Of a stretch of DNA of 64,000 nt, positions 1 through 40,778 are shown piece by piece. Under the pieces are notes generated by a model. That model saw only the letters and a list, made by a program, of their open reading frames with translations, was not told the DNA's origin and did no database searches. Numbering within the stretch: position 1 is the first letter of the stretch; every line of letters begins with the position of its first letter. The translations under genes were made by a program, and so were the position numbers. The stretch is taken from positions 22,597-86,596 of the forward strand of contig JAHJCO010000052.1 of the NCBI GenBank assembly GCA_018831265.1, given 5' to 3'. This DNA comes from Actinomycetota bacterium (GTDB lineage: Bacteria > Actinomycetota > Geothermincolia > Fen-727 > Anoxymicrobiaceae).

Positions 1-1383
1 GCCATAGGGGCCAAGCCCTACGTTCCCGGGGAGGGTAACCGCTGGAGCTACGACGGCGCCTCGGACGTCTTCACCTCTCTGGAGGTGGAACGGCTGCTGA
101 GCTCGGCGGGGCCCACGGGTGGAGAGCTTCTCAGGCGCAGCAACGGGCAGGTGCCCGAGCAGGTCGCCTTCGTCCAGTGCGTAGGCTCCCGAGACCCTGA
201 CGAGAACCCGTGGTGCTCGCGGATCTGCTGCCTCAACACCATCAAGCAGGCCTGCCAGGTCAAAGCCAGGTACCCCGAGGTGAAGGTCTCCGTGTACCAC
301 GGCGACATACGGCTGTACAAGAAGGAGCACGAGGACTTCTACAGGCTCGCCCGCGACCAGGGCATCGTGTTCATGCGCTCGCACGTCGAGGAGGTGGCAC
401 CGAGGGGCGATCGCCTCGAGGTGCGGGCGATCGACGAGCTGCTGGACGGCCCGACCGCCCAGGAGGTGGGGATGGTCGTCCTGGCCTGCGGGCTCACCCG
501 CACCGACGACGCGCAAAAGCTCCAGGACATGCTCAAGGTTCCGAGCAGCGCGGACGGCTTCCTGCTGGAGGCCCACCCCAAGCTGCGGCCGCTGGAGACC
601 GCCATCGACGGGGTGATGCTGGCGGGAACCTGCCAGTTCCCGAAGGACATCGGCGACTGCATGCTGCAGGCGAGCGGGGCCGCCGCCAAGTGCATGGGGA
701 TGCTTTCCAAGGACAGCATCGAGCTGGACGGGATAATCTCTTCAATAGAACAGGACCTGTGTAACGGGTGCATGGTATGCGTCAAGAAGTGCCCGTTCGG
801 CGCGGTCACCACCGACGAGGTGGAGGTCGAGGGCAAGATGAAGAAACGCGCCCGCGTCATCGAGGCCTCCTGCAAGGGGTGCGGGGTATGCGTGGCGCGC
901 TGCAAGCAGGGCGCTATCCAGGCGCACGGCTTCACCGACGAGCAGATCTTCGCGCAGATAGACGCGGCGCTGGAGGAGGACCCGGGGGGCAGGATCCTCG
1001 CGCTCGTCTGTCACTGGTGAACTTACGGCGGAGCTGACCAGGCGGGGGTCAGCAGGTTCCAGTACCCGGCGAGCGCCAGGCTCATCCGGGTCATGTGCAC
1101 GGGACGTATAAGCCAGGAGATGGTCCTGCACGCGTTCGAGAGGGGCGCCGGCCTGGTGCTGATCGGCGGATGCCATCCCCCAGGCGACTGCCACTACATA
1201 AACGGCAACATCCAGTGCGAGGAGATGATCGCCAGGCTGAAGAAGAAGGCCCTCCCCGAGATGGGTGTCGACCCCGAGAGGCTGCGCCTGGAGTGGGTCT
1301 CATCGGCCGAGGGAACGGTCTTCCAGAGGATAATGAAAGAGATGGACGGGCAGCTCGAGGCACTGAAGGCGGCGAGACAATGA
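1..1383 (+). CDS. hdrA: HdrA-like heterodisulfide reductase subunit A (C-terminal part, 5'-partial) fused through an in-frame UGA (probable selenocysteine, nt 1018-1020) to an MvhD-like domain
   Basis: Frame 1 is open from nt 1. The HdrA motif FVQCVGSRD...NPWCSRICC and two C-x2-C-x2-C-x3-CP ferredoxin motifs are present. The ORF ends ...LALVCHW at TGA, and the same frame continues TYGGADQAGVSRFQYP...RVMCTG (ORF 1093-1383), which is the MvhD consensus CNWC-S-YGGADLAGVSR. The TGA therefore sits exactly where the second Cys of the MvhD motif is expected. A perfect 7-bp hairpin GCTGACC-aggcggg-GGTCAGC lies 13 nt downstream (1033-1053), the position of a bacterial SECIS. Gene callers will split this into two ORFs. 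Confidence 0.7.
1033..1053 (+). other. SECIS-like stem-loop immediately downstream of in-frame UGA 1018-1020
   Basis: GCTGACC / GGTCAGC is a perfect inverted repeat with a 7-nt loop, 13 nt 3' of the TGA, within the coding sequence. Confidence 0.5.
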
Positions 1384-3005
1384 GACCTGTGGTGTTTGTC
1401 TGCACGACTCCGGAGGAGCGCAGGGACGAGCTCCGCTCCCTGGCCGGGATCCTTGAGCGCAGGGGTGTCGAGGTACACGTGAGCAAGGACTTCTGCCACC
1501 CCAAGGGGCAGCGGTTGATCCGCGAGAACGTGGGCGCGGACAAAGAAGTGGTCCTGGTGTGCAAGCGGAAGCTCACCCGGGACGTCTTCGAGCACAACTT
1601 CCCTCCCAGGATGGACTACGTCTCCCACGCGATGGAGGGCGACCCGGACGAGCTCGCGGCAAGGATCCGCTCCGAGTCCGCGCCCGGCGAGCCGGCCGGG
1701 GACGGGGAGCAGCCCATGCTTCAGAAGGTCATGGTGATCGGCGGCGGGGTGGCGGGCGTGTACGCCGCGCTCGACGTGGCCGAGCAGGGATTCCAGGTGA
1801 CGCTGGTCGAGAGCGACCCCTCGATCGGGGGGATAATGGCCGCGCTGGACAAGACCTTCCCGACCATGGACTGCTCGATATGAATCCTGGGCCCGAAGCT
1901 GGTGGAGTCAGCTAAGCACAGGAACATAGAACTGGTCACCAACGCCCAGGTCACCTCGGTGGAGGGCGAGCCCGGCAACTTCCGCGTAGGGCTCCTGCAT
2001 CAACCGTGGTACGTGGATACCGACCGGTGTACCGGGTGCGGAGCCTGCATCGACGTATGCCCGGTGTCCGTACCCCACGAGTGGGAGATGGACCTGAAAC
2101 CCCGCAAGGCCATATACGCGCTGTTCCCGCAGGCGGCGCCCCTCAAGTACGTGATAGACAGGGAGCGGTGCATCGAGTGCGGCTTGTGCATGCAGGCCTG
2201 CGGGCTGGACGCAATAGACCTGTCGCAGGAGCCGGGCGAGAGCGTCGTTGAAACGGGCGCGATCGTGGTGGCGACCGGAGCCGGTGTCTTCGACCCGTCC
2301 GCGATCCCCGAGTACGGGTATCCCGAGCACGAGAACGTCGTGACCAACATGGAGTTCGAGCGGATCTGCAACGCGTCGGGGCCGACCGAGGGCGAGCTGG
2401 TGAGACCGGACGGCAAGGCTATCCACAGCGTGGTGTTCGTCCAGTGCGTGGGCTCTCGCGACCTGGAATACAACGTGTGGTGCTCCTTCTACTGCTGCAT
2501 GGCCTCCGTCAAGGGCGGGCGCCTGGTGATGGAGCACGCGCCCGGCGCGGACGTGACCGTCTTCTTCAACGACCTGCGGGCGTGCGGCAAGGGGTTCGAG
2601 GAGCTGTACAGACGCTCGATCGACGAGGGGATGCGGTTCATCCGCTCCATGCCCTCGATCCGGTACGACCACGAGACCAACGACCCCATAGTCATCTACG
2701 AGGATCCCGAGGTCGGCGGCACGGTCGAGAAGAGGGTGGACCTGGTGGTGCTCGCCTGCGGGATGCAGGGCTCGGAGGGGACCAGGAGCATACGCAGGAT
2801 ACTGGGGCTGGAGCGAGACACCTACGGCTTCCTGAGCGAGGAGCACCCCGTGGACGGGCTCGCCGAGACCGGGCGCCCGGGGATATACCTGGCGGGGACG
2901 TGCCAGGGGCCCAAGGACATCCCGGATTCGGCGACCCAGGGGAGCGCGGCGGCGGCGAAGGTGGGGATACTCCTCTCGAGGGGTGAGCGATGGCTGCCCA
3001 GATGA
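1380..3005 (+). CDS. hdrA: HdrA-like FAD/Fe-S flavoprotein with in-frame UGA (probable selenocysteine, nt 1881-1883); lacks the C-terminal ferredoxin and MvhD part
   Basis: The ATG at 1380 overlaps the upstream stop (ATGA). GxGxxG FAD motif VIGGGVAGVYAALDVAEQG is present. ORF 1380-1883 ends ...KTFPTMDCSI-TGA, and the same frame continues ILGPKLVESAKHRNIELV (ORF 1902-3005). This reconstitutes the conserved HdrA stretch FPT-DCS-(C/U)-IL-PKLVE. Downstream motifs: CTGCGACIDVCP, VVFVQCVGSRD, AGTCQGPKDIPDS. A nested stem-loop (tcctg...cagga enclosing agctg-gtggagt-cagct) lies at 1885-1926. Confidence 0.7.
1885..1926 (+). other. SECIS-like nested stem-loop downstream of in-frame UGA 1881-1883
   Basis: Inner stem AGCTG/CAGCT (1897-1913) and outer stem TCCTG/CAGGA. 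This is a weaker structure than the hairpin at 1033. Confidence 0.35.
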
Positions 3006-3277
3006 AGACCGGAGAGGGGCTGGTCCGGGTGGAGTTCTTCGGGCCCTTCAGGGAGTTCGGCCACCGGGTCGACCTGACCGTGCCGTCGGAGGTCTCGTTC
3101 GAGGAGCTGGTATCCCTCCTGGAGGAGCGCGTGGGCCCCGGGTTCGCGGACCGCGCCGCCAGGCGGAACACGACCTTTATACTCGACAGCAGGATAGTCC
3201 CGCCGCAAGCGCTGGGCGAGGTGCGCGTGTGCCCGGGCGACCGGGCCGCGTTCGCCCTGCTCGTCGGTGGCGGTTGA
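2990..3277 (+). CDS. MoaD/ThiS-family small sulfur-carrier-like protein (C-terminal GG)
   Basis: 95 aa ending ...LVGGG, a ubiquitin-like beta-grasp pattern. It sits immediately upstream of the tungsten AOR gene. Confidence 0.55.
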   Translation: MAAQMKTGEGLVRVEFFGPFREFGHRVDLTVPSEVSFEELVSLLEERVGPGFADRAARRNTTFILDSRIVPPQALGEVRVCPGDRAAFALLVGGG

Positions 3278-3461: not shown

Positions 3462-5294
3462 ATGAAGGGGTACACCGGGAAGTATCTGAGAGTGGACCTC
3501 ACCACCGGTGACATCCGCACGGAGCGCCTGCCGGAGGAGGTCGCGAGGAAGTATCTCGGGGGCTACGGCTTCGTGGGCTGGACGCTCTACGAGGAGGTGC
3601 CCGCCGGCACCGACCCTCTTTCTCCCGAGAACGTCGTGTGCCTGTGGACCGGACCGGTGGCGGGTACCCCGGTTCCCGTGTCCTCGAAGTACATAATGGG
3701 CGCCCTCTCCCCCGCCACGGGGTTCATCGGGTTCGGTATAGCCTCCGGCGGGATCGCCTCGGAGCTCAAGGCGGCGGGCTTCGACGGGATCGTGGTCACG
3801 GGCAAGGCCCCGTCGCCGCAGTACATCCTCGTTCAGAACGGGCGCGCCGAGCTCCGTGACGCCTCGGACCTGTGGGGAAAAACCACCTGGGAGACCGAGG
3901 AGCTCATCCGCGAGGAGCTCTCCGACGACGAGGTCAGGGTATCGTCGATAGGGCCGGCCGGTGAGCTCCTCTCTGTGCTGGCCAACGTCACCAACGACCG
4001 GAACCGGCAGGTCGGGCGGTCGGGAATAGGCTGCGTGATGGGCTCCAAGAACCTCAAGGCGATCGCCATACGGGGGACCGGCGACGTCGAGGTGGCCGAC
4101 CTGGACGGGCTCATGGAGTTCTCCAGGGACCTCTACAAACGGTGCAGGGGGCCGGCCACCGAGAAGTACAGGGTGTTCGGGACGCCCGCAAACATGCTGG
4201 TCCACAACAGGCTGGGTTGCCTTCCCTCCTATAACTTCCAGAAGGGCACCTTCGAGAAGGTGGAGGACGTCTCCGGCGAGAGGATGCTGGAGACCATGGT
4301 GAAGAAGATCACCGCGTGCCCATCGTGCCCCATCGCCTGCGACCACATAAACGAGGTCAAAGAGGGGCCCTGGGCGGGCACGGTCTCGTCGATGGACTAC
4401 GAATCGCTCGAGCTCCTCGGCCCCAACTGCGGGGTCTCCGACCTCAACGCCATCACCAAGGCGGTCGAGCTCTGCGACACCCTGGGCATAGACACCATAT
4501 CGGCCGGGGTGACCGTCTCCTGGGCTATGGAGGCGTTCGAGAGGGGACTGCTCACCAGTGAGGACGTCGACGGCCTCGACCTGCGCTTCGGGAACGGCGA
4601 GGCGATGGTGGAGGCGGTGCGGCGGATGTCCCTGCGCGAGGGCAATCTCGGCGCACTGATCGCCGACGGCTCCGCGCGGGCGGCGGAGAAGCTGGGCAAG
4701 GGCTCGGAAAAGTTCGCCATGGTCAACAAGAAGCTGGAGTGGGGCGCGTACTCGCTCCGTCCGCTGCAGACGGCAACCCTGGGGTTCGCCACCAGCGTGC
4801 GGGGCGCCTGCTACCTGCGCTCCGGCTCCTACCAGCCCGACGTGAAGGGCACCGTGGACCGGTACCACCTGGACAGCTCGCGGGGAAAGGTCGTCTTCGA
4901 GGGAGAGAACCTGTACGCGATAATCGACTCGCTCATCATCTGCAAGTTCACCCGGGGCATATACAAGGACAACACCGAGTTCACCAAGCTCATAAAGCTG
5001 GTCACCGGGTTCGACTGGAGCGTAGAGGAGATGATCAAGACCGGCGAGCGCATCCACAACCAGGCCAAGCTCTTCAACGTGAGGTTCGGCGCCAAGCGCG
5101 CCGACGACTACCCGCCGCCGCGCGCGTTCGAGGAGAAGCTGTACGACGATGTGAGCGACGGTGCGATCATCATCCGCGCGGAGTACGACGAGGCGCTCTC
5201 CGGCTACTACGAGGAGCGGCGCTGGGACGAGGAAGGCATACCGACGAAGGCGCTCCTCGAGGAGCTCGGCCTCGACGCGACCCTGGGGGTGTGA
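3462..5294 (+). CDS. aor: aldehyde:ferredoxin oxidoreductase (tungsten-containing AOR family)
   Basis: 610 aa with N-terminus MKGYTGKYLRVDLTTG..., typical of the AOR family. Size and domain order match a W-pterin AOR. Confidence 0.85.
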   Translation: MKGYTGKYLRVDLTTGDIRTERLPEEVARKYLGGYGFVGWTLYEEVPAGTDPLSPENVVCLWTGPVAGTPVPVSSKYIMGALSPATGFIGFGIASGGIASELKAAGFDGIVVTGKAPSPQYILVQNGRAELRDASDLWGKTTWETEELIREELSDDEVRVSSIGPAGELLSVLANVTNDRNRQVGRSGIGCVMGSKNLKAIAIRGTGDVEVADLDGLMEFSRDLYKRCRGPATEKYRVFGTPANMLVHNRLGCLPSYNFQKGTFEKVEDVSGERMLETMVKKITACPSCPIACDHINEVKEGPWAGTVSSMDYESLELLGPNCGVSDLNAITKAVELCDTLGIDTISAGVTVSWAMEAFERGLLTSEDVDGLDLRFGNGEAMVEAVRRMSLREGNLGALIADGSARAAEKLGKGSEKFAMVNKKLEWGAYSLRPLQTATLGFATSVRGACYLRSGSYQPDVKGTVDRYHLDSSRGKVVFEGENLYAIIDSLIICKFTRGIYKDNTEFTKLIKLVTGFDWSVEEMIKTGERIHNQAKLFNVRFGAKRADDYPPPRAFEEKLYDDVSDGAIIIRAEYDEALSGYYEERRWDEEGIPTKALLEELGLDATLGV

Positions 5295-5299
5295 GGTAG

Positions 5300-5776
5300 A
5301 TGGAAGCCAAGAAGATAATCGTCTGCGACACCGAGAAGTGCACCGGATGCGAGATCTGCGAGTACGCCTGCTCCATCTACAAGGAGAAGAGGATCAACTG
5401 GTCCCGGTCCCGGATAAGGCACGTCCGCATCGAGCCCACCTTCGACATCGCCATAGCCTGCCGCAAGTGCGAGGAGCCCCTCTGCATCAAGGCGTGCCCG
5501 CGTGACGCGGTGGTGGTGCTCTCCGACGGGTCCGTGAAGATCGACAAGGATAAGTGCAACGGCTGCGGCTGGTGCATAGAGGCGTGCAACTTCGGGGCGC
5601 TGAAGCTCGACTGGGAGAAAAAATGCGCGTTCACCTGCGATTTCTGCGCGGACCTCGGCACCCCCATGTGCGTCGAGGTCTGCCCGTATGAGGCCCTGGA
5701 GTACACCACGCTGGACCAGGTGGGCCACGAGGCGGGCAAGAAGGCGTTCAAGAGGATAATCGAGGAGCTGAGCTGA
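5300..5776 (+). CDS. 4Fe-4S poly-ferredoxin (AOR-associated electron-transfer subunit)
   Basis: 158 aa with four CxxCxxCxxxCP-type motifs; 5 nt downstream of aor. Confidence 0.8.
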   Translation: MEAKKIIVCDTEKCTGCEICEYACSIYKEKRINWSRSRIRHVRIEPTFDIAIACRKCEEPLCIKACPRDAVVVLSDGSVKIDKDKCNGCGWCIEACNFGALKLDWEKKCAFTCDFCADLGTPMCVEVCPYEALEYTTLDQVGHEAGKKAFKRIIEELS

Positions 5777-5857: not shown

Positions 5858-8056
5858 GTGAAGAGGTCGCTCGTCTCGCTGTCGATCGCAACCCTGCTCC
5901 TGTTCTCTACCGTTCCCCTGCTCCCTCAGGCCGCCGTGGCGGCGGACCTGCAGGGCTGGGTGCAACAGGTGTCGGGCGTGACCGAGAACCTGGTGGACGT
6001 ACAGGCGCTCGACGCCGATACGGCCTGGGCGGTCGGCTGGAGCGACACCATCCTGAAGACCACCAACGGGGGGGCGGACTGGAACCCCCAGGTGTCCGGG
6101 ACGACGAGCAAGGACCTGCAGGATATCTCCGCGGTGAACGGCAACACGGCCTGGGCGGTCGGTCACGGCGGGACGATCATCGTGACCGTCAACGGTGGAA
6201 CAACCTGGACACCGCCCCTGACGGCTCCTCCGATCGCCACCACCAACCTGGCCGGAGTGCACGCCTTCAGCGCGCTCTCGGTATGGGCGGTCGGCGGGTC
6301 CGGCACGGTGATAAGGACCAACAACGGGGGGCTGACCTGGGACGACCAGGCCACTCCCACCACGCGGGACCTGTTCGCGATATCGGCGGCGGACACGCTC
6401 AACGCCTGGGCTGTGGGAAACGAAGGAGCGCTCATCCACACCACCAACGGCGGCGCCACCTGGGTCGCACAGACCGCCACCTCGCAGAAGCTCCGGGGCG
6501 TCCACGCCCTCAGCCCCACTGTGGCATGGATCTGCGGGTTCAACGGCGAGATCTACAAGACGTATGACGCCGGAGCCACCTGGAACCGTCAGCCGACGCC
6601 GACCGACAACATACTCTATGACATCTGGGCCGTGGACAACGACGTGGCCTGGTCCGTGGGCTACGACGACTTCGTCCTCGACGAGGGGATAACCCTGAAG
6701 ACGACCGCGGACGGGGCCGACTGGCACTTCCAGTACGGCTCGACGCAGAACCTGCTCGGGGTGAGCGCGGTGAACTCGCAGATCGCCTGGGCGGTCGGCA
6801 TGAACGGCGAGATACTGAAGACGACCAACGGGGGCGAGTGGTACAGGACCTGGTATCTCGCCGAGGGAGCGACCCTGGGCGGCTTCGAGACCTGGGTGCT
6901 GGTGCAAAACCCGGGCACGAACCCGGCGGACGTCAACATCACCTACATGACGGACCAGGGCGCGGTACAGGGCCCTGTGTTCCAGCTCGCGCCGGAGAGC
7001 CGCACGACCGTGAACGTCGCGGAAACGGTACAGACCTTCGACGTGTCCACCTACGTATCGAGCAATGCCCCGGTGGTGGCGGAGCGCGCCATGTACTGGT
7101 TCAACCGCAAGGCCGGCCACGAGTCCATTGGAACGGTGGCTCCGGCCACGACCTGGTACCTGGCGGAGGGAGCCACCCAGGGAGGCTTCGAGACCTGGGT
7201 GCTCGTGCAGAACCCGGGTGCGGCCACCGCTAATGTGAACCTCACCTACATGACCGAGAATGGGGCGGTGCCCGGACCCCCGCTGCAGATACCGGCTCAG
7301 AGCCGGCAGTCGGTGCCGGTGAACGCGACCGTGACCACCTACAAGGTCTCGACGCTCGTGTCGAGCGACCAGCCGGTCATCGCCGAGCGGGCGATGTACT
7401 GGAACAACAGGTTCGGCGGCCACGACTCCATAGGCGTGAACGGGCCGGACAACGACTGGTACCTGGCCGAGGGGGCCACCCTGGGAGGATTCGAGACCTG
7501 GGTGCTTGTGCAGAACCCGGGGGCTGCGGCCACCAACGTAACCTTGAACTTCATGACGGAGAACGGTCCCGTGACCGGCCCGACCTTCTCGCTTGGGGCC
7601 ATGAGCAGGGAGTCCATCGACATCTCGCAGTGGGTCCAGACCTTCAAGGTCTCCACTCGCGTGACGAGTACACCCGGTCCTGTCATCGCCGAGAGGGCGA
7701 TGTACTGGAACGGCCGTATCGAGGGGCACGACTCGATCGGTGTCACCATGCCCTCGGACACCTGGTACCTGGCCGAGGGGGCCACGCTGGGGGGCTTCGA
7801 GACCTGGATCCTGGTACAGAACCCCGGTCCCATCGCGGTCGACGTCGACCTCACCTACATGACGGACCAGGGTGAGGTGACAGGGCCGCATTTCTCGCTC
7901 GAGGCGAACAGCAGGGAATCCATCGACGTCGGGGCCGACCTGCAGACCTACAACGTCTCGACCAGGGTCACAGCGAGCGCGCCGGTGATAGCCGAGCGGG
8001 CGATGTACTGGAACAACCGCATCGGCGGCCACGACTCGATCGGCCTGGGGCTCTAG
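5858..8056 (+). CDS. secreted protein: signal peptide + BNR/Ycf48-like beta-propeller repeats (TAWAVG..GTIxKTTNGGxTW, about 7 blades) + four copies of the ~105-aa WYLAEG...AERAMYW module
   Basis: Signal peptide MKRSLVSLSIATLLLFSTVPLLPQAAVAA. Modules start at WYRTWYLAEGATLGG, TWYLAEGATQGG, DWYLAEGATLGG and TWYLAEGATLGG. Each ends AERAMYWxNRxGGHDSIG. Confidence 0.8.
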   Translation: MKRSLVSLSIATLLLFSTVPLLPQAAVAADLQGWVQQVSGVTENLVDVQALDADTAWAVGWSDTILKTTNGGADWNPQVSGTTSKDLQDISAVNGNTAWAVGHGGTIIVTVNGGTTWTPPLTAPPIATTNLAGVHAFSALSVWAVGGSGTVIRTNNGGLTWDDQATPTTRDLFAISAADTLNAWAVGNEGALIHTTNGGATWVAQTATSQKLRGVHALSPTVAWICGFNGEIYKTYDAGATWNRQPTPTDNILYDIWAVDNDVAWSVGYDDFVLDEGITLKTTADGADWHFQYGSTQNLLGVSAVNSQIAWAVGMNGEILKTTNGGEWYRTWYLAEGATLGGFETWVLVQNPGTNPADVNITYMTDQGAVQGPVFQLAPESRTTVNVAETVQTFDVSTYVSSNAPVVAERAMYWFNRKAGHESIGTVAPATTWYLAEGATQGGFETWVLVQNPGAATANVNLTYMTENGAVPGPPLQIPAQSRQSVPVNATVTTYKVSTLVSSDQPVIAERAMYWNNRFGGHDSIGVNGPDNDWYLAEGATLGGFETWVLVQNPGAAATNVTLNFMTENGPVTGPTFSLGAMSRESIDISQWVQTFKVSTRVTSTPGPVIAERAMYWNGRIEGHDSIGVTMPSDTWYLAEGATLGGFETWILVQNPGPIAVDVDLTYMTDQGEVTGPHFSLEANSRESIDVGADLQTYNVSTRVTASAPVIAERAMYWNNRIGGHDSIGLGL

Positions 8057-8059
8057 TAC

Positions 8060-8158
8060 GGTGCCAGGCACATTAGCCCGAAAGTATTAGCCTCGATGAA
8101 CTCTTTCCTGTCGGGGAGAGAGCAGGACTAATAATCCAGAGGTAATGTGCCTGGCACC
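8060..8158. mobile_element. MITE-like element: 16-bp perfect terminal inverted repeats GGTGCCAGGCACATTA / TAATGTGCCTGGCACC flanking about 67 bp
   Basis: Lies between two convergent genes. The arm core GGTGCCAGGCAC recurs in other palindromes of the window. Confidence 0.45.
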
Positions 8159-8171
8159 GGGTATTAGTCGG

Positions 8172-8957
8172 CTACCTGCCCTTGAAGTCGGGGGGACGCT
8201 TCTCCATGAAGGCGGTCACGCCCTCGACAACGTCCGCGGTCGCCACCGCGATGCCCTGGCAGCTACCCTCGCGGTCCAGGCAGCCCGCCAGGTCGGACTC
8301 GAAGGACTTGTTGAGCATCCCCTTCATCATGCCGATGGCCCGTGTCGGCCCCGCCGCAAGCCGGTCGGCGATCTCCATGGCCTTGTTCATCAGCTCCTCC
8401 TGTGGGACGACCGCATTGACCAGGCCCATCTCCAGGGCCTTCCGCGCCGGGACGTCATCCCCGAAGAACATGAGCTCCTTGGCCTTCGCCAGGCCGATAA
8501 GCCTGGGCAGGAAGTAGGTCCCACCCAGGTCGGCGATCAGCCCGCGGCGCACGAACACCTGTATGAACTTCGCCTTCTCGGAGGCGACCAGCAGGTCACA
8601 GGAGAAGGCGAGGTTGCAGCCCGCTCCGGCGGCGACCCCGTTGATGGCGCCGATTATCGGCTTCTCCAGCACCCACATGGCGTGACAGAGCCGAGAGTAG
8701 GCGAAGCAGGTTATCCGCATGCCCGGCGCGGTGAAGGCGTCCTCCCGGCCGCCTCCGCCCGACAGGTCGGCCCCGGTGCAGAAGCCGTCCCCCGCGCCGG
8801 TGACCACCACGGCGCGCACCTCATCGTCGAACTGCAACTCGTGCATCACCGCGCCCATCTCCTGGACCAGGTCCATCGTGAAGGCGTTCTTCTTCTCGGG
8901 GCGGTTCAGCGTGAGGACCTCGACCGCGCCTTTCCTCTCCCGCAGCAGCTCGTCCAT
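8172..8957 (-). CDS. enoyl-CoA hydratase/isomerase (crotonase family)
   Basis: Start at internal ATG (MDELLRERKGAVEVLTLNRPEKKNAF) preceded by GAAAGGAAGG RBS. C-terminal crotonase end ...FMEKRPPDFKGR. Confidence 0.8.
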   Translation of the reverse strand: MDELLRERKGAVEVLTLNRPEKKNAFTMDLVQEMGAVMHELQFDDEVRAVVVTGAGDGFCTGADLSGGGGREDAFTAPGMRITCFAYSRLCHAMWVLEKPIIGAINGVAAGAGCNLAFSCDLLVASEKAKFIQVFVRRGLIADLGGTYFLPRLIGLAKAKELMFFGDDVPARKALEMGLVNAVVPQEELMNKAMEIADRLAAGPTRAIGMMKGMLNKSFESDLAGCLDREGSCQGIAVATADVVEGVTAFMEKRPPDFKGR

Positions 8958-9010
8958 GGGCCTTCCTTTCTCATGCAGCCACTCAGCGGTGGCGAACTCG
9001 CGACGCCCAA

Positions 9011-9571
9011 ATGATATCATTTGAGGCCAACGGTATCTTTCCACGACTGGAGGTGCGTGACATCACCGAGCCATCACTCTTCAACCGCAAGATAGAGGTC
9101 GACGCGAACGACGAGGACGGCCGCCTGCGCATGAAGGGCAGCCTGCTCGACACGCGGATGGGCGAGCCGCTGCACGGCATAGAGGTGGAGATGATCGTGG
9201 ACGCGCTCGAGGGCTCCATACTGGAGATATCGGGCTCCTTTGCGGTCTGGCCGCTGGAGGAGTGCAAGCAGGGGCTGCAGGCGCTCCAGGAACTGGTCGG
9301 CGCGAAGATAATGCCCGGGTTCACGGACTTCGTGAAGTCCACGGTCGGCTCCAACCGCGGATGCACCCACATGGCTGCCCTCATCATGACCATGGGAAAC
9401 GTGTCCGTGCAGGGACGCGGCGCCTGGCTGCGCAAGTACATACCCAACGACACCGACCTGGCGCATGCCATGGAGCACAGCGCGAAGGCCCTCGGCCTGG
9501 TGGACAGCTGCGTGAGCTGGGCCCTGGACGGCCCGATACTCACCAGGTACCGCCAGGGCCTCGAGAAATAA
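9011..9571 (+). CDS. hypothetical protein
   Basis: 186-aa ORF divergent from the crotonase. No recognisable family from the sequence alone; the start is uncertain. Confidence 0.4.
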   Translation: MISFEANGIFPRLEVRDITEPSLFNRKIEVDANDEDGRLRMKGSLLDTRMGEPLHGIEVEMIVDALEGSILEISGSFAVWPLEECKQGLQALQELVGAKIMPGFTDFVKSTVGSNRGCTHMAALIMTMGNVSVQGRGAWLRKYIPNDTDLAHAMEHSAKALGLVDSCVSWALDGPILTRYRQGLEK

Positions 9572-10429: not shown

Positions 10430-12064
10430 CTACCGGGCCCGGCCGGTCCCGCCGCGATCGCCGGCCAGCTCCATCCGGCCACTCGCGACCTCGGCCTGCG
10501 CGGGCAGCTCGAGACGCTCGCGGTCCATCTGCTCCTGCTTGCGGTGCGCCTTCTCGGCCTTGGACGCCTGCCGCTCGGCCTTGTAGCGGTGTTTGAGCTC
10601 TGAGATGTAGTAGCGGTTCATACTCTTCCACCTGGTGATTGTGTGGTGCGCGTAGATGCTTATCGCCATGTCCTTCCAGCGGAACGACATCCCCAGCTTC
10701 CAGCACTGGAAGACGGAGTAGAACCTTCGCATCGCCTTCAGGCCTATCTCCTTCTGGAGCTTGAACGGTGACATCTTGGCGGGCTCATAGACCACGTGGT
10801 GCCCGCTGAACTTGGACCAGTCGTCCACGAAGATGCGCCCCTCGCTGCACAGCTCGTCGTAGGTCTCGGTCCCCGGAAGCGGGGTCAGCACCAGGAACTG
10901 TACGGTATCTATCCCCGACTTGCGCGCGAAGCGGACCGTGTCCCTTATGGTCTGCTTGTCGTCCTCGTCCGAGCCGAGCACGAACATGCCGTGCACCCTG
11001 ATCTTGTACTGGTGCAGGACCTCGACCGCGCGCCTGATGTCATCCACGGTCTGTGACTTGCGGAACGCCTCCAGGGTCGCCGGGTTGATCGACTCGACGC
11101 CCAGGAAGAGGTTCTTGCAGTTGGTGTCGCGCATCAGCTCCATGAGCTCGAGGTCCTCGACCACCTCGACCCGCGCCTGGGCCATCCATCGCTGGGTCAG
11201 CCCCTTCTCCTTCATCTTGCGGAGGAGCTCCTTGGTGTGCGACGGCGAGGCGGTGAAGTTGTCGTCGTAGAAGAAGACCGTGCGGTTGGGCTGCCTCTCG
11301 CAGAGCACCTCCAGCTCCGCTATCACGTCATCGGTGTCGCGGAACCGGTACCTGCGCCCGAACATGCTTGTCACCGAGCAGAACTTGCAGTCGTACGGGC
11401 AGCCGCGCGAGGTCTGTAGTGGGATGACCTTGAATCTCTCGAATCCCTCGATGAGGGTGAGGTCCGGCCACGGCAGCGCCGTGAGGTCCTTTACCCTCTC
11501 GCGGTCGGGGTTGTGCCGGAACCCGTCGCCGTCGTGGTAGGAGAGGCCCTCGATGTCCGAGAGCTCGCCCTCACCGGCCGAGAGTTGCTCTATCAGCTCG
11601 ACGAACGTCTCTTCACCCTCCCCGCGGACTACGAAATCGGCCCCCGCTGCGAGAGCCTCGTCCGCGAGGAACGACACGTGCGGACCACCCAGGACCACCG
11701 GGATATCACTCGAGGCCTTGATGCGCTCGATCAGGTCGTAGGCGACCGGCGCCGTCGGAGTTACGGTCGATATACCGACCAGGTCGGCCGTCGCCACCTC
11801 GCCCCAGTCGATCTTCGCCACCTCCTGGACGTAGATCTTGACCTCGATGCCCTTATCAACGAGAACAGCTCCCAGCAGGGGCAGCCCCAGTCTCGGGAGC
11901 TTGAACTTCGAGAAGACGTGGAACCCCGGGGCCCTGGGTTCGATAAGGACGACCTTGCGGATTCCGTCATACCCTGGCTGTGCATGCAGGCTGCACAAGT
12001 CCCGCGTATCGTGGCGCGGCCCGATATGCCCGCCTGATCGACCTGGCTCTTCAGAGGTATTCAT
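10430..12064 (-). CDS. B12-binding-domain radical SAM protein
   Basis: N-terminal cobalamin-binding-like domain (VVLIEPRAP...VVLGGPH) followed by a radical SAM core with the CPYDCKFC (CxxxCxxC) motif. The start overlaps the vapC stop by a few codons. Confidence 0.75.
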   Translation of the reverse strand: MNTSEEPGRSGGHIGPRHDTRDLCSLHAQPGYDGIRKVVLIEPRAPGFHVFSKFKLPRLGLPLLGAVLVDKGIEVKIYVQEVAKIDWGEVATADLVGISTVTPTAPVAYDLIERIKASSDIPVVLGGPHVSFLADEALAAGADFVVRGEGEETFVELIEQLSAGEGELSDIEGLSYHDGDGFRHNPDRERVKDLTALPWPDLTLIEGFERFKVIPLQTSRGCPYDCKFCSVTSMFGRRYRFRDTDDVIAELEVLCERQPNRTVFFYDDNFTASPSHTKELLRKMKEKGLTQRWMAQARVEVVEDLELMELMRDTNCKNLFLGVESINPATLEAFRKSQTVDDIRRAVEVLHQYKIRVHGMFVLGSDEDDKQTIRDTVRFARKSGIDTVQFLVLTPLPGTETYDELCSEGRIFVDDWSKFSGHHVVYEPAKMSPFKLQKEIGLKAMRRFYSVFQCWKLGMSFRWKDMAISIYAHHTITRWKSMNRYYISELKHRYKAERQASKAEKAHRKQEQMDRERLELPAQAEVASGRMELAGDRGGTGRAR

Positions 12065-15524: not shown

Positions 15525-16157
15525 TCAAGCGCAGAAGCCTTCGAAGATGCGGACCGCCTCCACCGCATCGCGGCCCAGCGCGTCGATGCCATACCTGTCG
15601 GCGAGCTCCTGGGTGGTGCATGCGCCACCGATGGCTATCTTGACCTTTTCGCGCAGCCCCGCCGATTCCAGCGCCTTCACCACGTCGCCGATGGAGTCAA
15701 CCATGGAGGTGAGCAGCACTGAGAGCGCGACCGCGTCGGCGTCGTTGGACCGCACGGCCTCGACTATCCTGTCCTCGTGCACGTCCACGCCCAGGTCGAC
15801 CACGTCGAACCCGGAGGTGGAGAGCATGGTGCATACCAGGTTCTTGCCTATATCGTGGATGTCGCCCTTGACCGTGCAGGCTACGACCTTTCCCTTCTTC
15901 TCCAGCGCCTCACCGACCAGCAGCGGCTCGAGGATCGCGACGCCCTCCTTCATCCCCTCACCCGCCAGGACCAGGTCCGCCAGGTAGTACTCTCCCTGCT
16001 CGAACAGCTCGCCCACCTTCGCCATCCCGGAGCACATTGCCCCCAGTACGTCCTTCGGAGCCTGGCCGGCGTCCAGCGCCTCCCTGACCAGCGGGGCTAT
16101 GTTGTCCAGGTCCAGATCCGAGACCGCCGCCTGCACCTTTTCCAGTTGCTCTGCCAC
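15525..16157 (-). CDS. corrinoid (cobalamin-binding) protein of methyltransferase systems (MtaC/MtbC/MttC family)
   Basis: B12-binding DxHxxG motif GDIHDIGKN with a Rossmann-like C-terminal half, plus an N-terminal helical cap domain; 210 aa. Confidence 0.8.
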   Translation of the reverse strand: MAEQLEKVQAAVSDLDLDNIAPLVREALDAGQAPKDVLGAMCSGMAKVGELFEQGEYYLADLVLAGEGMKEGVAILEPLLVGEALEKKGKVVACTVKGDIHDIGKNLVCTMLSTSGFDVVDLGVDVHEDRIVEAVRSNDADAVALSVLLTSMVDSIGDVVKALESAGLREKVKIAIGGACTTQELADRYGIDALGRDAVEAVRIFEGFCA

Positions 16158-16220
16158 TTGAGCCTCCTTGCCCTGCCGCCGCCGCGCGGTCGGCTCACCG
16201 CCGGGAACGATTTTATCTCC

Positions 16221-17390
16221 TCAAACCTTCAAAGGGTAATGCCCGTACTCCTCGACCGCCTCCAGCATCCAGCGCAGCCGCTCCAGGCGCATCCCGGGAT
16301 GGCTGTTCGTGGGAGCGACGATGTAGCCGCCGCCCTTGCCGGCATCCGCTATGCGCTGCTTGATGTCGGCGAAGACCTCCTCCCTGGTGGCGTCCACCAG
16401 TATGTGGGTGACGTCGACATTGCCGAGCAGGCACATGCGGTCGCCCACCATCTCCTTGACCTTCGCCAGCTCTACCCCCGCCGTAGGCTCGAGCGCGTGC
16501 ACGCCGTCGAACCCGCAGTCGGCAAACCACCCTATCAGCGGGTAGACGTCGCCGTCCGTATGAACGACTATCTTCATGCCCAGCCTGTGCGCGGTCTCGG
16601 TGATGCGCCTGAACGAGTCGCCGAAGAACTCCTCCATCATCTTCGGGTTGAGCATGGGCCCGGAGCGGTACGCCTGGTCGTCGGAGTACACCGCGCCCGG
16701 CAACCCCGCGTCGGCCCACGCCTCGATCATCATGCAGTAGAGGTCCTCGTAGAACTTGATGTAGCGCCGCATGAACTCCTTCTCGCGCCGGATCATCACC
16801 GCGAAACGTTCGAAGCCGAACGGCTGCCAGCAGGTCTCGAAGAGCCCGAACAGGAAGCTGCCCAGGATGAAGATGTCATTGCCGAAGTCTTTCTGGATGT
16901 GCGAGAAGGCCCTGTTGGCCCGCTCGGGCAGCCGCAGTATGTCCTTCTTGTCCCACGCGTCCCAGTCATCGGGGCCCGACAGCAGCCCTCCCCTGTACAT
17001 CGGAGTCCCGATGTTGCCCTTGTGGTCCACTACGAGGTCGTAGTAGCGGCCGTAGATGTCGGTGGCGGTCTTCGAGTCCGGGAACCGCCAGATCGGAACG
17101 TGCATGGTCCAGACGGAGTCGTAGCCCATCCTGACCGAGGCGTCCACGCGGTCGTGGGAGAAGTGGTCCATCTCCCTGTCGATCAGGTGAAGCTTGTTGA
17201 CCAGAGGGCAGGCCAGGTCGAAGAGCCTGGAGGCGTACTTGTTGTCGACGAGGAACCCCAGCGGGACCGGCTTCTTGCCGAGTATCTCGTAGATGTTGGA
17301 GTACTCCTCCATCACATCCATGGTGGGTACGCGGTCCGGCTCGCGGAGCTCGAGGGCCGCCGTCACCCTCTCTATACTGGACATCGCCAT
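16221..17390 (-). CDS. uroporphyrinogen decarboxylase (URO-D) family methyltransferase (MtaA/CmuA-like, methylcorrinoid methyltransferase)
   Basis: 389 aa. URO-D/MT2 fold markers: ...VHTDGDVYPLIGWFADCGFDGVHALEP... Confidence 0.65.
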   Translation of the reverse strand: MAMSSIERVTAALELREPDRVPTMDVMEEYSNIYEILGKKPVPLGFLVDNKYASRLFDLACPLVNKLHLIDREMDHFSHDRVDASVRMGYDSVWTMHVPIWRFPDSKTATDIYGRYYDLVVDHKGNIGTPMYRGGLLSGPDDWDAWDKKDILRLPERANRAFSHIQKDFGNDIFILGSFLFGLFETCWQPFGFERFAVMIRREKEFMRRYIKFYEDLYCMMIEAWADAGLPGAVYSDDQAYRSGPMLNPKMMEEFFGDSFRRITETAHRLGMKIVVHTDGDVYPLIGWFADCGFDGVHALEPTAGVELAKVKEMVGDRMCLLGNVDVTHILVDATREEVFADIKQRIADAGKGGGYIVAPTNSHPGMRLERLRWMLEAVEEYGHYPLKV

Positions 17391-17425
17391 TGTCGCGTCC
17401 TTTCGTCGGTGCCGAGGTTACTATA

Positions 17426-18094
17426 TCAAGAAAGCTGCGTGGAGAAGTCCTCGAAGCGGATCTCCACTCCCGGCTCCACGACCACGAACTCGTCGGTCCA
17501 TTCGCCTGCCAGCAGCATCTCCAGCATCCGGTTCGAGCCGGGTATCTCCACGAACTGAAGTTCCAGGAACCCGGCCATGGCGCGCGCGAAGTCGCGGTAC
17601 TCGTCCATGTGGTAGTTGCCGGTGTCGATCAGCGCCACGGTGGTGTAGTTGACGAACAGCACGCGGGCCACCTTGAGGGCGCGCTCCGGCCCGTAGCGCT
17701 CGACCAGGCGTTCATACTCCGCGACCGTCCCCTCCTGGGCCTCCACCCAGCCCTTGGTCAGGTAGTAGGTGCCGGGCTCGGCGCGAAGCCTCTCCATGTG
17801 GGCGGCGCGGGACCCCAGGAATAGGGCGATGCAGTCGTCCACCTTCGGTATGACGAGCCTGTGGGTCGGTGAGGACAGGCTTACCACTGCGTTCGAGCAC
17901 AACCCGTATCCGAGCAGGATGTCGCACTCGCCGGGCACGGCCTCGACGGCCGCCTTCAGCTCCGACTTCAGCTTCTCGGGCTCCGCGTGCAGCCCGAACT
18001 CGAGCACGGTCAGGCGCTCCTCGGTCACCCCCAGGCGGCGCAGCTCCTCGGCCACGGTCGCGCAGGATATGACGTGGTAGTCATCGGTTCTCAT
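17426..18094 (-). CDS. DUF1638-domain protein (commonly encoded with corrinoid methyltransferase genes)
   Basis: Internal start MRTDDYHVISCATV.... Co-oriented and tightly spaced with the MtaA-like and corrinoid protein genes. Confidence 0.5.
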   Translation of the reverse strand: MRTDDYHVISCATVAEELRRLGVTEERLTVLEFGLHAEPEKLKSELKAAVEAVPGECDILLGYGLCSNAVVSLSSPTHRLVIPKVDDCIALFLGSRAAHMERLRAEPGTYYLTKGWVEAQEGTVAEYERLVERYGPERALKVARVLFVNYTTVALIDTGNYHMDEYRDFARAMAGFLELQFVEIPGSNRMLEMLLAGEWTDEFVVVEPGVEIRFEDFSTQLS

Positions 18095-18350
18095 CGCACC
18101 CGGCTCTCGCTGTCCGGGTAGCTCCGCTTCCCGGTCCATCGACGCTGCCTTTCACCTGGTCCCAGAAGGCTTCCCGTATGAATAACGCGATTTTAACCCG
18201 CGGCTAACGGCCGTTTCACCCGCGTGCCCGATTATCCTCCCAGGGACCGGGTAGATGGAACCGGTCTGGAATCGGGCCGGGTGGCGCGGCTTCATACTCC
18301 CCCACTCACTCCCCGCGCCGCCCGGCTTCCCCTCCACTTTGAGTACCCAT

Positions 18351-25909: not shown

Positions 25910-28306
25910 TCAGTCGTCGAAGCCGCCGATCGTGTCCGTGCCCGCGCCCCGGGAGTTCCAGTACATGGCACGCTCGCACATGATGCGCCCTCCCGCAGTC
26001 AGCGACTCCACCATCACCGCCGCCCGACCTCCTGGCAGGTGGTCGGCCATGTTGAAGGTGACACGCGAGTTCGCGGGGACCTCGGAGTCGAACTGCGGGC
26101 TGCCCAGCCCGTCCGGCGTCATGTAGGTCACCCTCACCGTGACAGGCACGTCGTTGGGATTCTGCACGAGCGTCCAGGTCTCGTGGCCGTTGGCCGTCTC
26201 GCCGTCGGGCAGGAAGAACTTCATGTGACGGTTTGCCATGCCGATCGAGTCGTGGCAGGCCTCCCCCGCCCCGGCGTCCCAGTACATGGCTCTCTCGGTG
26301 ATGATGCTCTGCGAGCCGTGGGCGTGGGTGGAGAAGTCGGGAACGTTCATGCTCGGTGACTCCTGGTTGACGTTGACGGTCCGCCTGGAGTTGGGGGGCA
26401 TCTGGAACGAGGTCTGAGTACTGTCCTGGGGCGTCATGAACGTCAGGGTGACGTCCGTGACCGTGTCGTGCGGGTTCTGCACCAGCACGTAGGTGGTGAA
26501 CCCCCAGCCGACCGAGCCCTCCGCGAGGTAGCAGTCGACCGCCGGGGTCGTGGTCCCGGTGGAGTCGTGACCCTCCCTCCTGCCGTTGCGGTACATCGCC
26601 CGCTCGGGGATGACCGGCACGCTGGAGGTGACCATGATGGACGCGTCGGCGCTCCCGATGTCATCGACCATGCCGAAGCTGCTCCGCGAGTTCGCCGGCA
26701 CCACGTGGTTCACCGGAACCGGCTCGCCGCCCTCGACCATGTAGGTCACCGTGCAGTATGCGTCCTGGGTGTTGGGGTTCTGGATGAGCAGCCAGGTCTC
26801 GAAACCCCACTTCGAGCTTCCCTCGGGCATGTACCAGGTCCGGGCCGGAGCCGTGACCCCCACCGAGCAGTGCCCCTCCGGCGAGAGCGCTCCCTGGCCG
26901 GTCCACATCATGCGGCGGTCCACCGCGATGGTCCGTCCCTCCTTACAGACGACCCTGGTGGAGAAGTCGGCCGTGCCGATGTCGTTCCTGGGGTTGATCA
27001 CGGTCTGGCTGTTCGCGGGGAGCCAGACGTCGGGCCTCTGGGTGGGCCCGGACGGCGTCATGTAGGTCACGGCGGCCGTGGACGCCTGGGCGCTCGGGTT
27101 CTGTATGGTCACGTAGGTCTCGAACCCCCAGTCGCTGGACCCCTCGGCCAGGTACCATGTCGAGAAGTACGCCTTGGTGACGGTCAGGGCTCCCACCCCG
27201 GTCGCGGACTCCCCGTCCGGGTTGCGCACGGTCACGTCCCAGGTCCCGAGCGCCGCCCCGGTCAGGTCCACGTAGCACACAAGCCCCTGCGTATAAGCGA
27301 CCGCCTCGCCGGTCGCCTCGATATCGCCCTGCCCGCTCCTCTCCAGGACCACCTGCGCGCCCTCGTCGAACCCCTGGCCGGCGATGTTCATGGACACCGA
27401 GCCGTTGTTCGGCGCGGTCGACGGCTGCACGTTGCTGACCGACATCTCCGGCTCGGGCTCGGGCTCGGGTTCCGGCTCCTCCTCGATGAACGCCGCGTAG
27501 GCGTCGTTCAGCAGGGGCACGAACTCGGCTGTCGCCTTGAGGTTGCCGGCCTGCGAGGGGTGGTCGTCACCGGTGGGGTAGGCCAGCGTGTTCCCACCGC
27601 CGTCGGTCTTGTGCTGCACCGCGCCGTTCCACCAGCGGTGGTGGTTACCGTTCGCGCTCCCCAGGTCGTTGGTGTCCGGGTCCCCGCCGTTGCTGGTCAG
27701 CACGTTGTAGAAGTCGAATACGAGCACGTTGCCCGTTTCGTAGGAGTCCAGCCAGTCGTTCACCAGCCACTGGTTGAAGGCGCGCGCGTTCGCCGCCCAG
27801 GTCGAATCGCTCAAGGGTGGGGCGGCGATGACCACGAACAGCCTGTCCGATTGCGTGGCGAAGTAATCCAGCAGGGCGATGTAGATACCCTTGGCGTTGG
27901 CCACCGTGTGATACTGAGACCCGCAGGCCTGGCTTCTCAGGGGATTCGAACCGATGGGTGGGACCGGGTCGGAGGGGTTTCCCCTAAGGCCTGAGTTCGG
28001 GAAGCACGACTTGAAGACGACCACCTCGTTCTCGCCGGTGGGATCCGGGTTGGAGGCCATCCGCGAGTAGGAGCAGTTCTGGCCGGACTGGTCGTAGAGC
28101 GCCGCGGTGTAGGTGTCCCGCGAGGGCCCCAGGAACCAGTCGTACCAGTGGCCGATGTCCGTGCGGTCCCCGATGGCATCCGGCCCCCACCCGTAGTTGG
28201 TATCGCTCACGTAGTAGTTGCCGTCCCGCAGGGCCAGCCCGAGGCCGCCGTTGCCATCGGCGAGCCAGTTCTGGCCGGTGGAGTGGTGGACGAAGACGAG
28301 CCTCAC
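25910..28306 (-). CDS. secreted modular protein: N-terminal about 300-aa putative hydrolase-like head, EPEPEPEPEPE linker, IPT/TIG-like Ig domain, and a 4-module WYLAEG...AERAMYW block ending GTDTIGGFDD
   Basis: Modules: STWYLAEGSSDWGFETYVTIQNP, RTWYMPEGSSKWGFETWLLIQNPN, VDCYLAEGSVGWGFTTYVLVQNPH, MKFFLPDGETANGHETWTLVQNPN. The true N-terminus probably extends to about 28411: the in-frame upstream peptide IRRAIAIAVAAGLLCLASPFVPAALAADP is a signal peptide with GGAGAAGGAGG 5 nt before an ATC codon and no canonical start. Confidence 0.75.
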   Translation of the reverse strand: MRLVFVHHSTGQNWLADGNGGLGLALRDGNYYVSDTNYGWGPDAIGDRTDIGHWYDWFLGPSRDTYTAALYDQSGQNCSYSRMASNPDPTGENEVVVFKSCFPNSGLRGNPSDPVPPIGSNPLRSQACGSQYHTVANAKGIYIALLDYFATQSDRLFVVIAAPPLSDSTWAANARAFNQWLVNDWLDSYETGNVLVFDFYNVLTSNGGDPDTNDLGSANGNHHRWWNGAVQHKTDGGGNTLAYPTGDDHPSQAGNLKATAEFVPLLNDAYAAFIEEEPEPEPEPEPEMSVSNVQPSTAPNNGSVSMNIAGQGFDEGAQVVLERSGQGDIEATGEAVAYTQGLVCYVDLTGAALGTWDVTVRNPDGESATGVGALTVTKAYFSTWYLAEGSSDWGFETYVTIQNPSAQASTAAVTYMTPSGPTQRPDVWLPANSQTVINPRNDIGTADFSTRVVCKEGRTIAVDRRMMWTGQGALSPEGHCSVGVTAPARTWYMPEGSSKWGFETWLLIQNPNTQDAYCTVTYMVEGGEPVPVNHVVPANSRSSFGMVDDIGSADASIMVTSSVPVIPERAMYRNGRREGHDSTGTTTPAVDCYLAEGSVGWGFTTYVLVQNPHDTVTDVTLTFMTPQDSTQTSFQMPPNSRRTVNVNQESPSMNVPDFSTHAHGSQSIITERAMYWDAGAGEACHDSIGMANRHMKFFLPDGETANGHETWTLVQNPNDVPVTVRVTYMTPDGLGSPQFDSEVPANSRVTFNMADHLPGGRAAVMVESLTAGGRIMCERAMYWNSRGAGTDTIGGFDD

Positions 28307-40605: not shown

Positions 40606-40778
40606 GATGAGGGACCTTCCTTTCCTTCCGGTGTTTCACAGTATCCTAGTGCCCCACCGCGCGGGCGGTCAAACAGGGTTCGTGGCCTTCATCGTCAACC
40701 CGAGCACAGGATGGCACTCGCTTCAAACTGATATAATCAAACAGGCGTATGCAACTACTTGGAAGGCGGTGTTACGCT

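Follow-up and report, generated by a model that had tools for sequence, protein, structure and literature searches.

HdrA and FrhD/MvhD have been known as bacterial selenoprotein families since 2006, tandem hdrA-hdrA arrangements included (Zhang et al. 2006), and a 2026 review lists both the HdrA alpha subunit (NF040770) and MvhD/VhuD (PF02662) as selenoproteins with a CxxU motif, in which U stands for selenocysteine (Sec). The structure of the M. maripaludis Hdr-Vhu-Fwd complex, solved by cryo-electron microscopy and published in 2026, shows Sec197 paired with a cysteine residue between the flavin and cluster A3, and the role of this Cys-Sec pair was left open in that paper. Here, we describe a short hdrA-like gene with an in-frame UGA codon from an Actinomycetota bacterium (GTDB class Geothermincolia, family Anoxymicrobiaceae). 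The gene is located on a stretch of 64,000 nucleotides (nt), referred to as the window (assembly GCA_018831265.1, contig JAHJCO010000052.1, positions 22,597 to 86,596 of the forward strand). Its codon 168, the UGA at 1881-1883, is very probably decoded as Sec within one continuous gene spanning 1380-3005, a reading to which we assign a probability of roughly 0.87 on the basis of the sequence comparisons given below. The protein is an ordinary new member of the known HdrA selenoprotein family and does not alter, in kind, the existing knowledge of HdrA selenoproteins. The features of the gene are as follows:

1380-3005, plus strand: short hdrA-like gene, 541 aa when read through the TGA
1740-1757, plus strand: GGGVAG dinucleotide-binding motif for flavin adenine dinucleotide (FAD), residues 121-126; matches to Pfam Pyr_redox_2, FAD_oxidored and related families begin at about residue 113-119
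1872-1883, plus strand: predicted CxxU motif Cys165-Ser-Ile-Sec168, aligned to C194-S-I-C197 of 5ODC HdrA
1881-1883, plus strand: in-frame TGA, codon 168, proposed Sec codon, conserved in relatives
1897-1913, plus strand: putative bacterial selenocysteine insertion sequence (SECIS) mini-hairpin, AGCUG 1897-1901 and CAGCU 1909-1913 with apical loop GUGGAGU 1902-1908
1896-1931, plus strand: suppressed synonymous variation, codons 173-184, containing the hairpin and a tail of ~18 nt
2010-2231, plus strand: inserted ferredoxin domain, residues 211-284, Pfam Fer4 families, with two CxxCxxCxxxC motifs at 2028-2063 and 2169-2204
2445-2498, plus strand: cluster-binding motif CVGSRD...CSFYCC in the thioredoxin-reductase-like domain of HdrA, aligned with the same motif of 5ODC

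A continuous hdrA-like gene with one internal stop

The frame 1380-3005 contains a single internal stop codon, the TGA at codon 168, and ends with the TGA at 3003-3005. From ATG 1380 it encodes ALDKTFPTMDCSI, followed by TGA 1881-1883 and ILGPKLVESAKHRNIELV, and the immediate surroundings of the internal stop read KTFPTMDCSI-TGA-ILGPKLVESAKH. Bases 1869-1916 (GAC TGC TCG ATA TGA ATC CTG GGC CCG AAG CTG GTG GAG TCA GCT AAG) translate as D-C-S-I-stop-I-L-G-P-K-L-V-E-S-A-K. A preliminary description of this DNA had reported a TGA after KTFPTMDCSI in a frame that continues to 3005, which is confirmed. The start codon overlaps the TGA stop (1381-1383) of the upstream gene in the tetranucleotide ATGA 1380-1383.

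For homology searches with the 541-aa read-through product, a cysteine residue was substituted at codon 168. The product matches the NCBIfam model HdrA2 (NF040770) in a single stretch comprising residues 106-536 (E 2.6e-155), and its residues 113-536 align with residues 142-569 of HdrA from M. thermolithotrophicus (PDB 5ODC; E 8e-135). Because the latter alignment is free of gaps across the TGA junction, residue 168 falls on Cys197 of 5ODC. The score against NF040770 is 519 bits, with a family cut-off of 1100, and no CCG-domain gene (hdrB/hdrC) is present in the operon of the window or in that of its relatives. The product is therefore termed HdrA-like and not heterodisulfide reductase; it differs from the full-length HdrA proteins that score above the cut-off and have HdrB/HdrC partners, as in a functional HdrABC.

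The domain architecture was only partly as first described. The short paralog had been credited with neither a ferredoxin nor an MvhD domain and with a different N-terminal extension. A C-terminal ferredoxin and an MvhD domain are indeed missing, but a 2x[4Fe-4S] ferredoxin is inserted at residues 211-284. Likewise, the N-terminal domain does differ, since it is shortened and degenerate in this clade with the CxC pair reduced to C-T-T, but it is not foreign: hhalign reveals homology of the first ~80 residues to the N-terminal domain of canonical HdrA (probability 97.5%, E 7.5e-12). The short protein and its long paralog, encoded by the upstream hdrA-mvhD fusion, are 37% identical. At the position of MDCSIU in the short paralog, the long one contains MERISC (the full-length gene is found at 7104-9482 of the related locus L027); the long paralog has no counterpart to the first Cys of the CxxU pair and retains just the Cys that corresponds to Sec.

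Conservation of codon 168 and its surroundings

Six loci from GTDB genomes and 17 metagenome loci were retrieved for comparison. The former comprise Ca. Anoxymicrobiaceae, Ca. Solincola tengchongensis, Ca. Geothermincola primus and two metagenome-assembled genomes (MAGs) of fen Actinomycetota. The related loci belong to Geothermincolia-type Actinomycetota, and 21 of them cover the TGA site, which results in an alignment of 22 sequences together with the window. Nucleotide diversity and synonymous variation were scanned in a codon alignment of 14 distinct orthologs with 62-100% protein identity.

TGA is retained at codon 168 in all 21 related loci. In the adjoining codons 169-172 (ILGP), changes in the 22-sequence alignment are limited to third positions, and the diversity at codon positions 1, 2 and 3 among the 14 orthologs is 0, 0 and 0.62. 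The corresponding values are 0.28, 0.23 and 0.51 for the N-terminal fragment and 0.21, 0.14 and 0.47 for the C-terminal fragment, a coding-like pattern in both.

Homologs were sought among 5.8 billion proteins, and the best 120 are considered here. The 30 closest homologs among the matches listed share 65-88% identity, but they are only 328-400 aa long, match no more than about two thirds of the query and start with (V/M)E(S/A)AKH, directly past the TGA. The site itself is spanned by 84 of the 120 homologs listed, and all 84 contain Cys in a DC[SA]xC motif (43-58% identity where reported). The ortholog comparison suggested with the preliminary description revealed a TGT (Cys) codon in L024-L026 next to the invariant TGA of the close relatives. 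No true gene boundary was found at this position in the orthologs: the Cys-type orthologs, which stem from Thermodesulfobacteriota-type MAGs, are single continuous genes encoding 546-551 aa. Thus, the earlier view that an HdrA paralog has a Sec-UGA at its conserved DCSx(C/U) position is supported by the alignment to Cys197/Sec197, by the retained TGA and by the Cys residue of the site-spanning homologs listed.

The C-terminal fragments P0031 and P0033 are named '4Fe-4S binding protein [Candidatus Geothermincolia bacterium]' by NCBI, so that public annotation does not identify the selenoprotein as such. The ATA codon in front of the TGA was considered as a Sec-specific context, but this was rejected, as the same ATA stands before TGT in the Cys-type orthologs. 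In L021 (contig FWPV01012403.1), the short hdrA contains a frameshift at ~5800, probably an assembly error, and an apparent second in-frame TGA in this sequence was rejected as an artefact of the frameshift.

Probable constraint on the RNA downstream of the UGA

A hairpin of 17 nt, AGCUG-GUGGAGU-CAGCU, begins 13 nt past the UGA, and its sequence is unique in the window. The RNAalifold consensus is exactly this 5-bp hairpin, and all five pairs are kept in 22 of 22 sequences. According to the consensus model for bacterial SECIS elements quoted in PMC13188914, the apical loop has 3-9 nt and is separated from the UGA by 16-37 nt, the upper stem has 4-16 bp, a G occurs in the first two positions of the loop, mostly with G or U as the next base, and the minimum free energy does not exceed -7.5 kcal/mol. 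With a 7-nt loop, a 5-bp stem and a spacing of 18 nt between UGA and loop (bases 1884-1901), the hairpin is within the limits of this model for loop, stem and distance. The loop reads GUGGAGK in 17 of the 22 sequences and GUGGAAG, GUGGAAA or GCGGAGU in the other five, its first base being G throughout. The fold of the window sequence has an energy of -14.8 kcal/mol, and the consensus hairpin alone has -6.0.

Evolutionary constraint gives the element its best support: the hairpin coincides with a strong suppression of synonymous changes. Seven-codon windows over codons 173-184 show the lowest synonymous variability of all 351 windows (0.03-0.04 vs a median of 0.32), and third-position diversity is 0.05 in the hairpin block vs 0.47-0.51 elsewhere in the gene. 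Codons ending in A or T (TCA/GCA and GCT) are fixed there, although G and C make up 0.90 of the third codon positions of the gene (GC3). In the two distinct Cys-type sequences, these synonymous sites are different and no such hairpin is formed. Taken together, the block appears to be constrained at the RNA level, and the hairpin at 1897-1913 is a probable, non-canonical SECIS.

The suppression extends ~18 nt beyond the hairpin (1914-1931), where CAC, AAC, ATA and GAA are nearly fixed and no conserved pairing accounts for the tail. A different type of element is found in L028, a metagenome contig of another lineage. Its two HdrA genes (L028 2983-3040 and 8088-8145) contain TMDCSI-TGA-ILGP and are both split by gene callers, and a GGAUGCC-GGUC-GGCAUCC SECIS with a 7-bp stem is located 27 nt after each UGA.

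A second UGA in the upstream MvhD domain

The gene preceding the short hdrA carries an in-frame TGA of its own:

1-1383, plus strand: 3' part of an hdrA-mvhD fusion, cut by the window start, with thioredoxin-reductase-like, C-terminal ferredoxin and MvhD/FlpD domains
1018-1020, plus strand: first in-frame TGA, in CHW-U-TYGGAD of the MvhD domain, probable Sec codon
1033-1053, plus strand: hairpin after the first TGA, GCUGACC-AGGCGGG-GGUCAGC

The encoded part matches Pfam FlpD (E 5.7e-43) and Fer4, as well as positions 325-773 of the 777 positions of the NCBIfam HdrA2 model (E 7e-150); full-length relatives comprise ~790 aa. The TGA at 1018-1020 lies 863 nt upstream of that at 1881-1883 and is kept in 20 of 20 related loci, in line with the earlier claim of two probable Sec-UGA codons less than 900 bp apart in tandem hdrA paralogs. 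The hairpin that starts 12 nt past this UGA has a 7-bp stem and a G-rich 7-nt loop, and one compensatory pair change, from U-A to C-G, occurs in L001 and L008-L011. A sub-clade consisting of L012, L013, L020 and L021 has a different sequence at this hairpin site.

As judged by homology, the two UGAs fall on established Sec positions in two known selenoprotein families. Both are followed by an equally spaced hairpin, and the two sites support one another. The in-frame TGA of the short hdrA is no product of chance, given the unbroken match of the read-through product to HdrA and the TGA at the same codon of the 21 related loci that cover the site. Besides the hdrA sites, the window contains five same-frame pairs of open reading frames (ORFs) split by one stop codon, four by TAG and one by TGA, and the single TGA-separated pair is an ordinary ABC permease/ATPase gene boundary.

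Decoding of the UGA and competing explanations

By analogy to the bacterial pathway, SelB-GTP loaded with Sec-tRNA(Sec) would bind the 17-nt hairpin at 1897-1913 during translation and would compete with release factor 2 in delivering Sec to the ribosomal A site. The thioredoxin-reductase-like FAD domain of the product would then contain Cys165-x-x-Sec168, in the place taken by the Cys-Sec197 pair in M. maripaludis, and the two residues could serve as a redox-active thiol/selenol (selenylsulfide) couple. Synthesis appears to be translationally coupled, via the ATGA overlap, to that of hdrA-mvhD with its own Sec-UGA. Both the insertion of Sec and the binding of SelB are inferred.

Several observations weigh against Sec decoding. 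Neither the 64-kb window nor the fetched loci contain selA, selB, selD or tRNA-Sec: Rfam searches at gathering thresholds and ARAGORN detected no tRNA-Sec and no RNA family in the window, ARAGORN detected no tRNA-Sec in 23 loci, and Pfam scans of ~35 window ORFs detected no SelA, SelB or SelD. The hairpin is short and, because its stem is invariant, shows no covariation. Its folding energy is not significantly different from that of shuffled sequence (z = -1.65), and the minimum free energy fold meets the bacterial SECIS model in 13 of 22 orthologs, with a base rate of 27% at random in-frame codons. Finally, the hairpin is unlike the canonical GGUC-loop SECIS that follows the same codon in the L028 HdrA genes.

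The lack of Sec machinery in the window and fetched loci and the weak, non-canonical hairpin would also agree with a read-through of the UGA by a near-cognate or suppressor tRNA (Trp, Cys or Arg), in which case no Sec machinery would be involved and the downstream block would be a read-through stimulator instead of a SECIS. UGA-to-Trp decoding does occur elsewhere in the Actinomycetota, in Eggerthellaceae. This explanation survives best among the alternatives but is quite improbable, as the codon is located exactly at the Sec/Cys position of the family and a second UGA is found at the known Sec position of the neighbouring MvhD domain. In addition, TGA is the main terminator in the window, where it ends 24 of 39 genes, and a requirement for Cys, the residue found in all site-spanning homologs listed, could be met by TGC.

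It is very improbable that the TGA is a true stop separating a 167-aa N-terminal subunit from a ~367-aa C-terminal subunit that starts at GTG 1902, even though every public gene call of the close relatives is divided in this way. Such a split would break the FAD-binding fold in the very motif that is most conserved. The stretch from the TGA to GTG 1902 includes codons 169-172, and these evolve as coding sequence with the diversity values given above; the GTG is replaced by GCG in L017 and is not preceded by a Shine-Dalgarno-like sequence, and the Cys-type orthologs are single genes. The GGUGGAG of the hairpin loop was also considered as a Shine-Dalgarno sequence for an internal start and was rejected, since there is no ATG/GTG/TTG in range and GTG 1902 is lost in L017.

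A pseudogene, or an error of sequencing or assembly, is a scarcely credible source of the TGA: the short hdrA of L021 does contain a frameshift further downstream, but the same TGA is present in 22 sequences from independent genomes and metagenomes that range from 62 to 100% in protein identity, and purifying selection acts on both sides of it. The split gene, the pseudogene and the sequencing error are thus ruled out by the conservation of the TGA, the coding signature, the loss of the start codon and the intact Cys-type orthologs. A genome-wide reassignment of UGA to sense (Trp or Gly) deserves equally little credence, for although such codes exist, including in some Actinomycetota, TGA terminates 24 of the 39 confidently called genes of the window, both hdrA genes among them, and in-frame TGAs with a coding signal on both sides are limited to the two hdrA sites.

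Sec decoding hence remains the preferred explanation, and it invites a broader proposal that is speculative and rather unlikely. Geothermincolia-type Actinomycetota might use a lineage-specific minimal SECIS, AGCUGGUGGAGKCAGCU plus the constrained tail of ~18 nt, that is read by a divergent SelB; the Sec of the operon would be present only in the two halves of the HdrA/HdrA-MvhD core, the Fdh-like and the free MvhD proteins being of the Cys type. In bacteria, the Sec trait is, as a rule, maintained by FdhA or SelD. If the proposal were true and the rest of the genome contained neither Sec-FdhA nor Sec-SelD, the lineage would be an exception to this rule.

Genomic surroundings of the hdrA pair

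Three further genes follow the short hdrA on the same strand:

2990-3277, plus strand: ThiS/MoaD-like small protein, weak match to Pfam ThiS (E 1e-3), also the next gene in relatives
3462-5294, plus strand: tungsten-type aldehyde:ferredoxin oxidoreductase (AOR), Pfam AFOR_N and AFOR_C, nearest structure P. furiosus 1AOR (E 6e-121)
5300-5776, plus strand: poly-[4Fe-4S] ferredoxin subunit after the AOR gene, Pfam Fer4_11 and related families, NCBIfam matches

The short hdrA and the ThiS/MoaD-like ORF share 16 nt at the end of the former. With overlaps at 1380-1383 and 2990-3005, the hdrA-mvhD, short hdrA and ThiS/MoaD-like genes appear to be translationally coupled. The complete gene order is seen in the relatives, where the operon encodes a ferredoxin, FlpD, an Fe-S protein, an Fdh-like molybdoenzyme (682 aa), a second Fe-S protein (270 aa), HdrA-MvhD, the short HdrA, the ThiS/MoaD-like protein, AOR and a ferredoxin. 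The window starts inside hdrA-mvhD and contains the last five genes of this operon. In the relatives, the Fdh-like molybdoenzyme (L027 4150-6198) displays the motif HCARLCH, the Cys of which we take to be at the Sec position of FdhA, and the free FlpD (L027 2836-3285) displays CRWC. As both proteins carry Cys, the two hdrA genes would be the only ones of this operon to use Sec.

The two paralogs probably form the heterodimeric HdrA core of a flavin-based electron-bifurcating module, and the Cys165-Sec168 couple would act beside the FAD of the short subunit. In the relatives, this module shares one operon with the Fdh-like molybdoenzyme, Fe-S proteins and the AOR. BamB-type class II benzoyl-CoA reductase modules also include Sec-containing HdrA/MvhD-like proteins among their subunits. 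An assignment of the AOR cluster to this type was rejected, because the AOR matches 1AOR of P. furiosus with E 6e-121 vs E 7e-62, over partial length, for BamB.

Two groups of genes elsewhere in the window are recorded here. Five large DUF5719 proteins with TIG or BNR-type repeats are encoded at 5858-8056 (+), 25910-28306 (-), 40749-44084 (+), 51105-52775 (-) and 59211-62894 (-), which is unusually abundant for one paralogous family in a single 64-kb window. Genes for B12-binding radical SAM, corrinoid and DUF1638 proteins and a URO-D (MtaA-like) methyltransferase at 10430-12064 (-) and 15525-18139 (-) look like a corrinoid-dependent methyl-transfer system.

Comparison with described Sec-containing HdrA proteins

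Public gene calls divide two selenoprotein genes of this clade into four fragments. Because both genes are split, reconstructions of these Actinomycetota, which have a Wood-Ljungdahl pathway, miss an intact selenium-dependent HdrA/HdrA-MvhD module and the associated selenium requirement. In the literature library that was searched, no report of Sec in Geothermincolia, Solincola or Anoxymicrobium was returned and papers on the lineage make no mention of selenium; the text of BSepDB contains no lineage detail. With this locus, the Cys-Sec pair beside a bifurcating flavin can be studied in a further bacterial lineage.

With the selenoprotein HdrA of Methanococcales (Sec197 in M. maripaludis, Cys197 in 5ODC), the protein shares the FAD/thioredoxin-reductase-like fold, the inserted ferredoxin and the motif DCSx(C/U)ILxPK, in which Sec, predicted in the present case, is the second residue of a CxxU pair adjoining the flavin. 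The archaeal proteins have a full N-terminal cluster domain, a C-terminal ferredoxin and HdrBC as well as Vhu/Mvh partners, whereas the protein described here has no C-terminal ferredoxin, an N-terminal CxC altered to CTT and no hdrB/hdrC nearby. Archaeal HdrA genes have their SECIS in the 3' untranslated region, while the element proposed here is inside the coding region, as in bacteria.

A similar gene organization is found for the bacterial genes for Sec-containing HdrA and FrhD/MvhD of Syntrophobacter, Syntrophus, Moorella, Carboxydothermus and Desulfotomaculum (Zhang et al. 2006). These have in common with the present locus the in-frame UGA at the same motifs, the tandem hdrA-hdrA arrangement, the combination of Sec-HdrA with Sec-MvhD/FrhD and the SECIS, a putative one here, within the coding region; they differ in lineage, as the genes here belong to Geothermincolia-type Actinomycetota.

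As for the SECIS, the minimal element of E. coli fdhF, studied by Liu and co-workers in 1998, is reportedly a 17-nt upper stem-loop located 11 nt after the UGA. Both hairpins are thus ~17 nt long, begin 11-13 nt past the UGA and have an apical loop starting with G. The predicted SelB site here has the loop GUGGAGU instead of GGUC and no bulged U. It likewise differs, with its 5-bp stem and GUGGAGK loop, from the GGAUGCC-GGUC-GGCAUCC element of the L028 HdrA pair.

The Cys-type orthologs P0023, P0024 and P0028, from Thermodesulfobacteriota and other MAGs, agree with the short hdrA in architecture across 98-99% of the length and are likewise preceded by an hdrA-mvhD fusion (781-788 aa), which in turn follows the gene for a 277-aa Fe-S protein. 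They differ in having a TGT codon, no AGCUG/CAGCU hairpin and an intact N-terminal CxC, and downstream of them genes for FeS-domain and molybdopterin proteins and an amidohydrolase are located instead of those for ThiS, AOR and ferredoxin. The locus thus supplies a probable non-canonical SECIS, and the close Cys-type orthologs offer a natural comparison for the predicted Sec-containing form of this HdrA-like protein.

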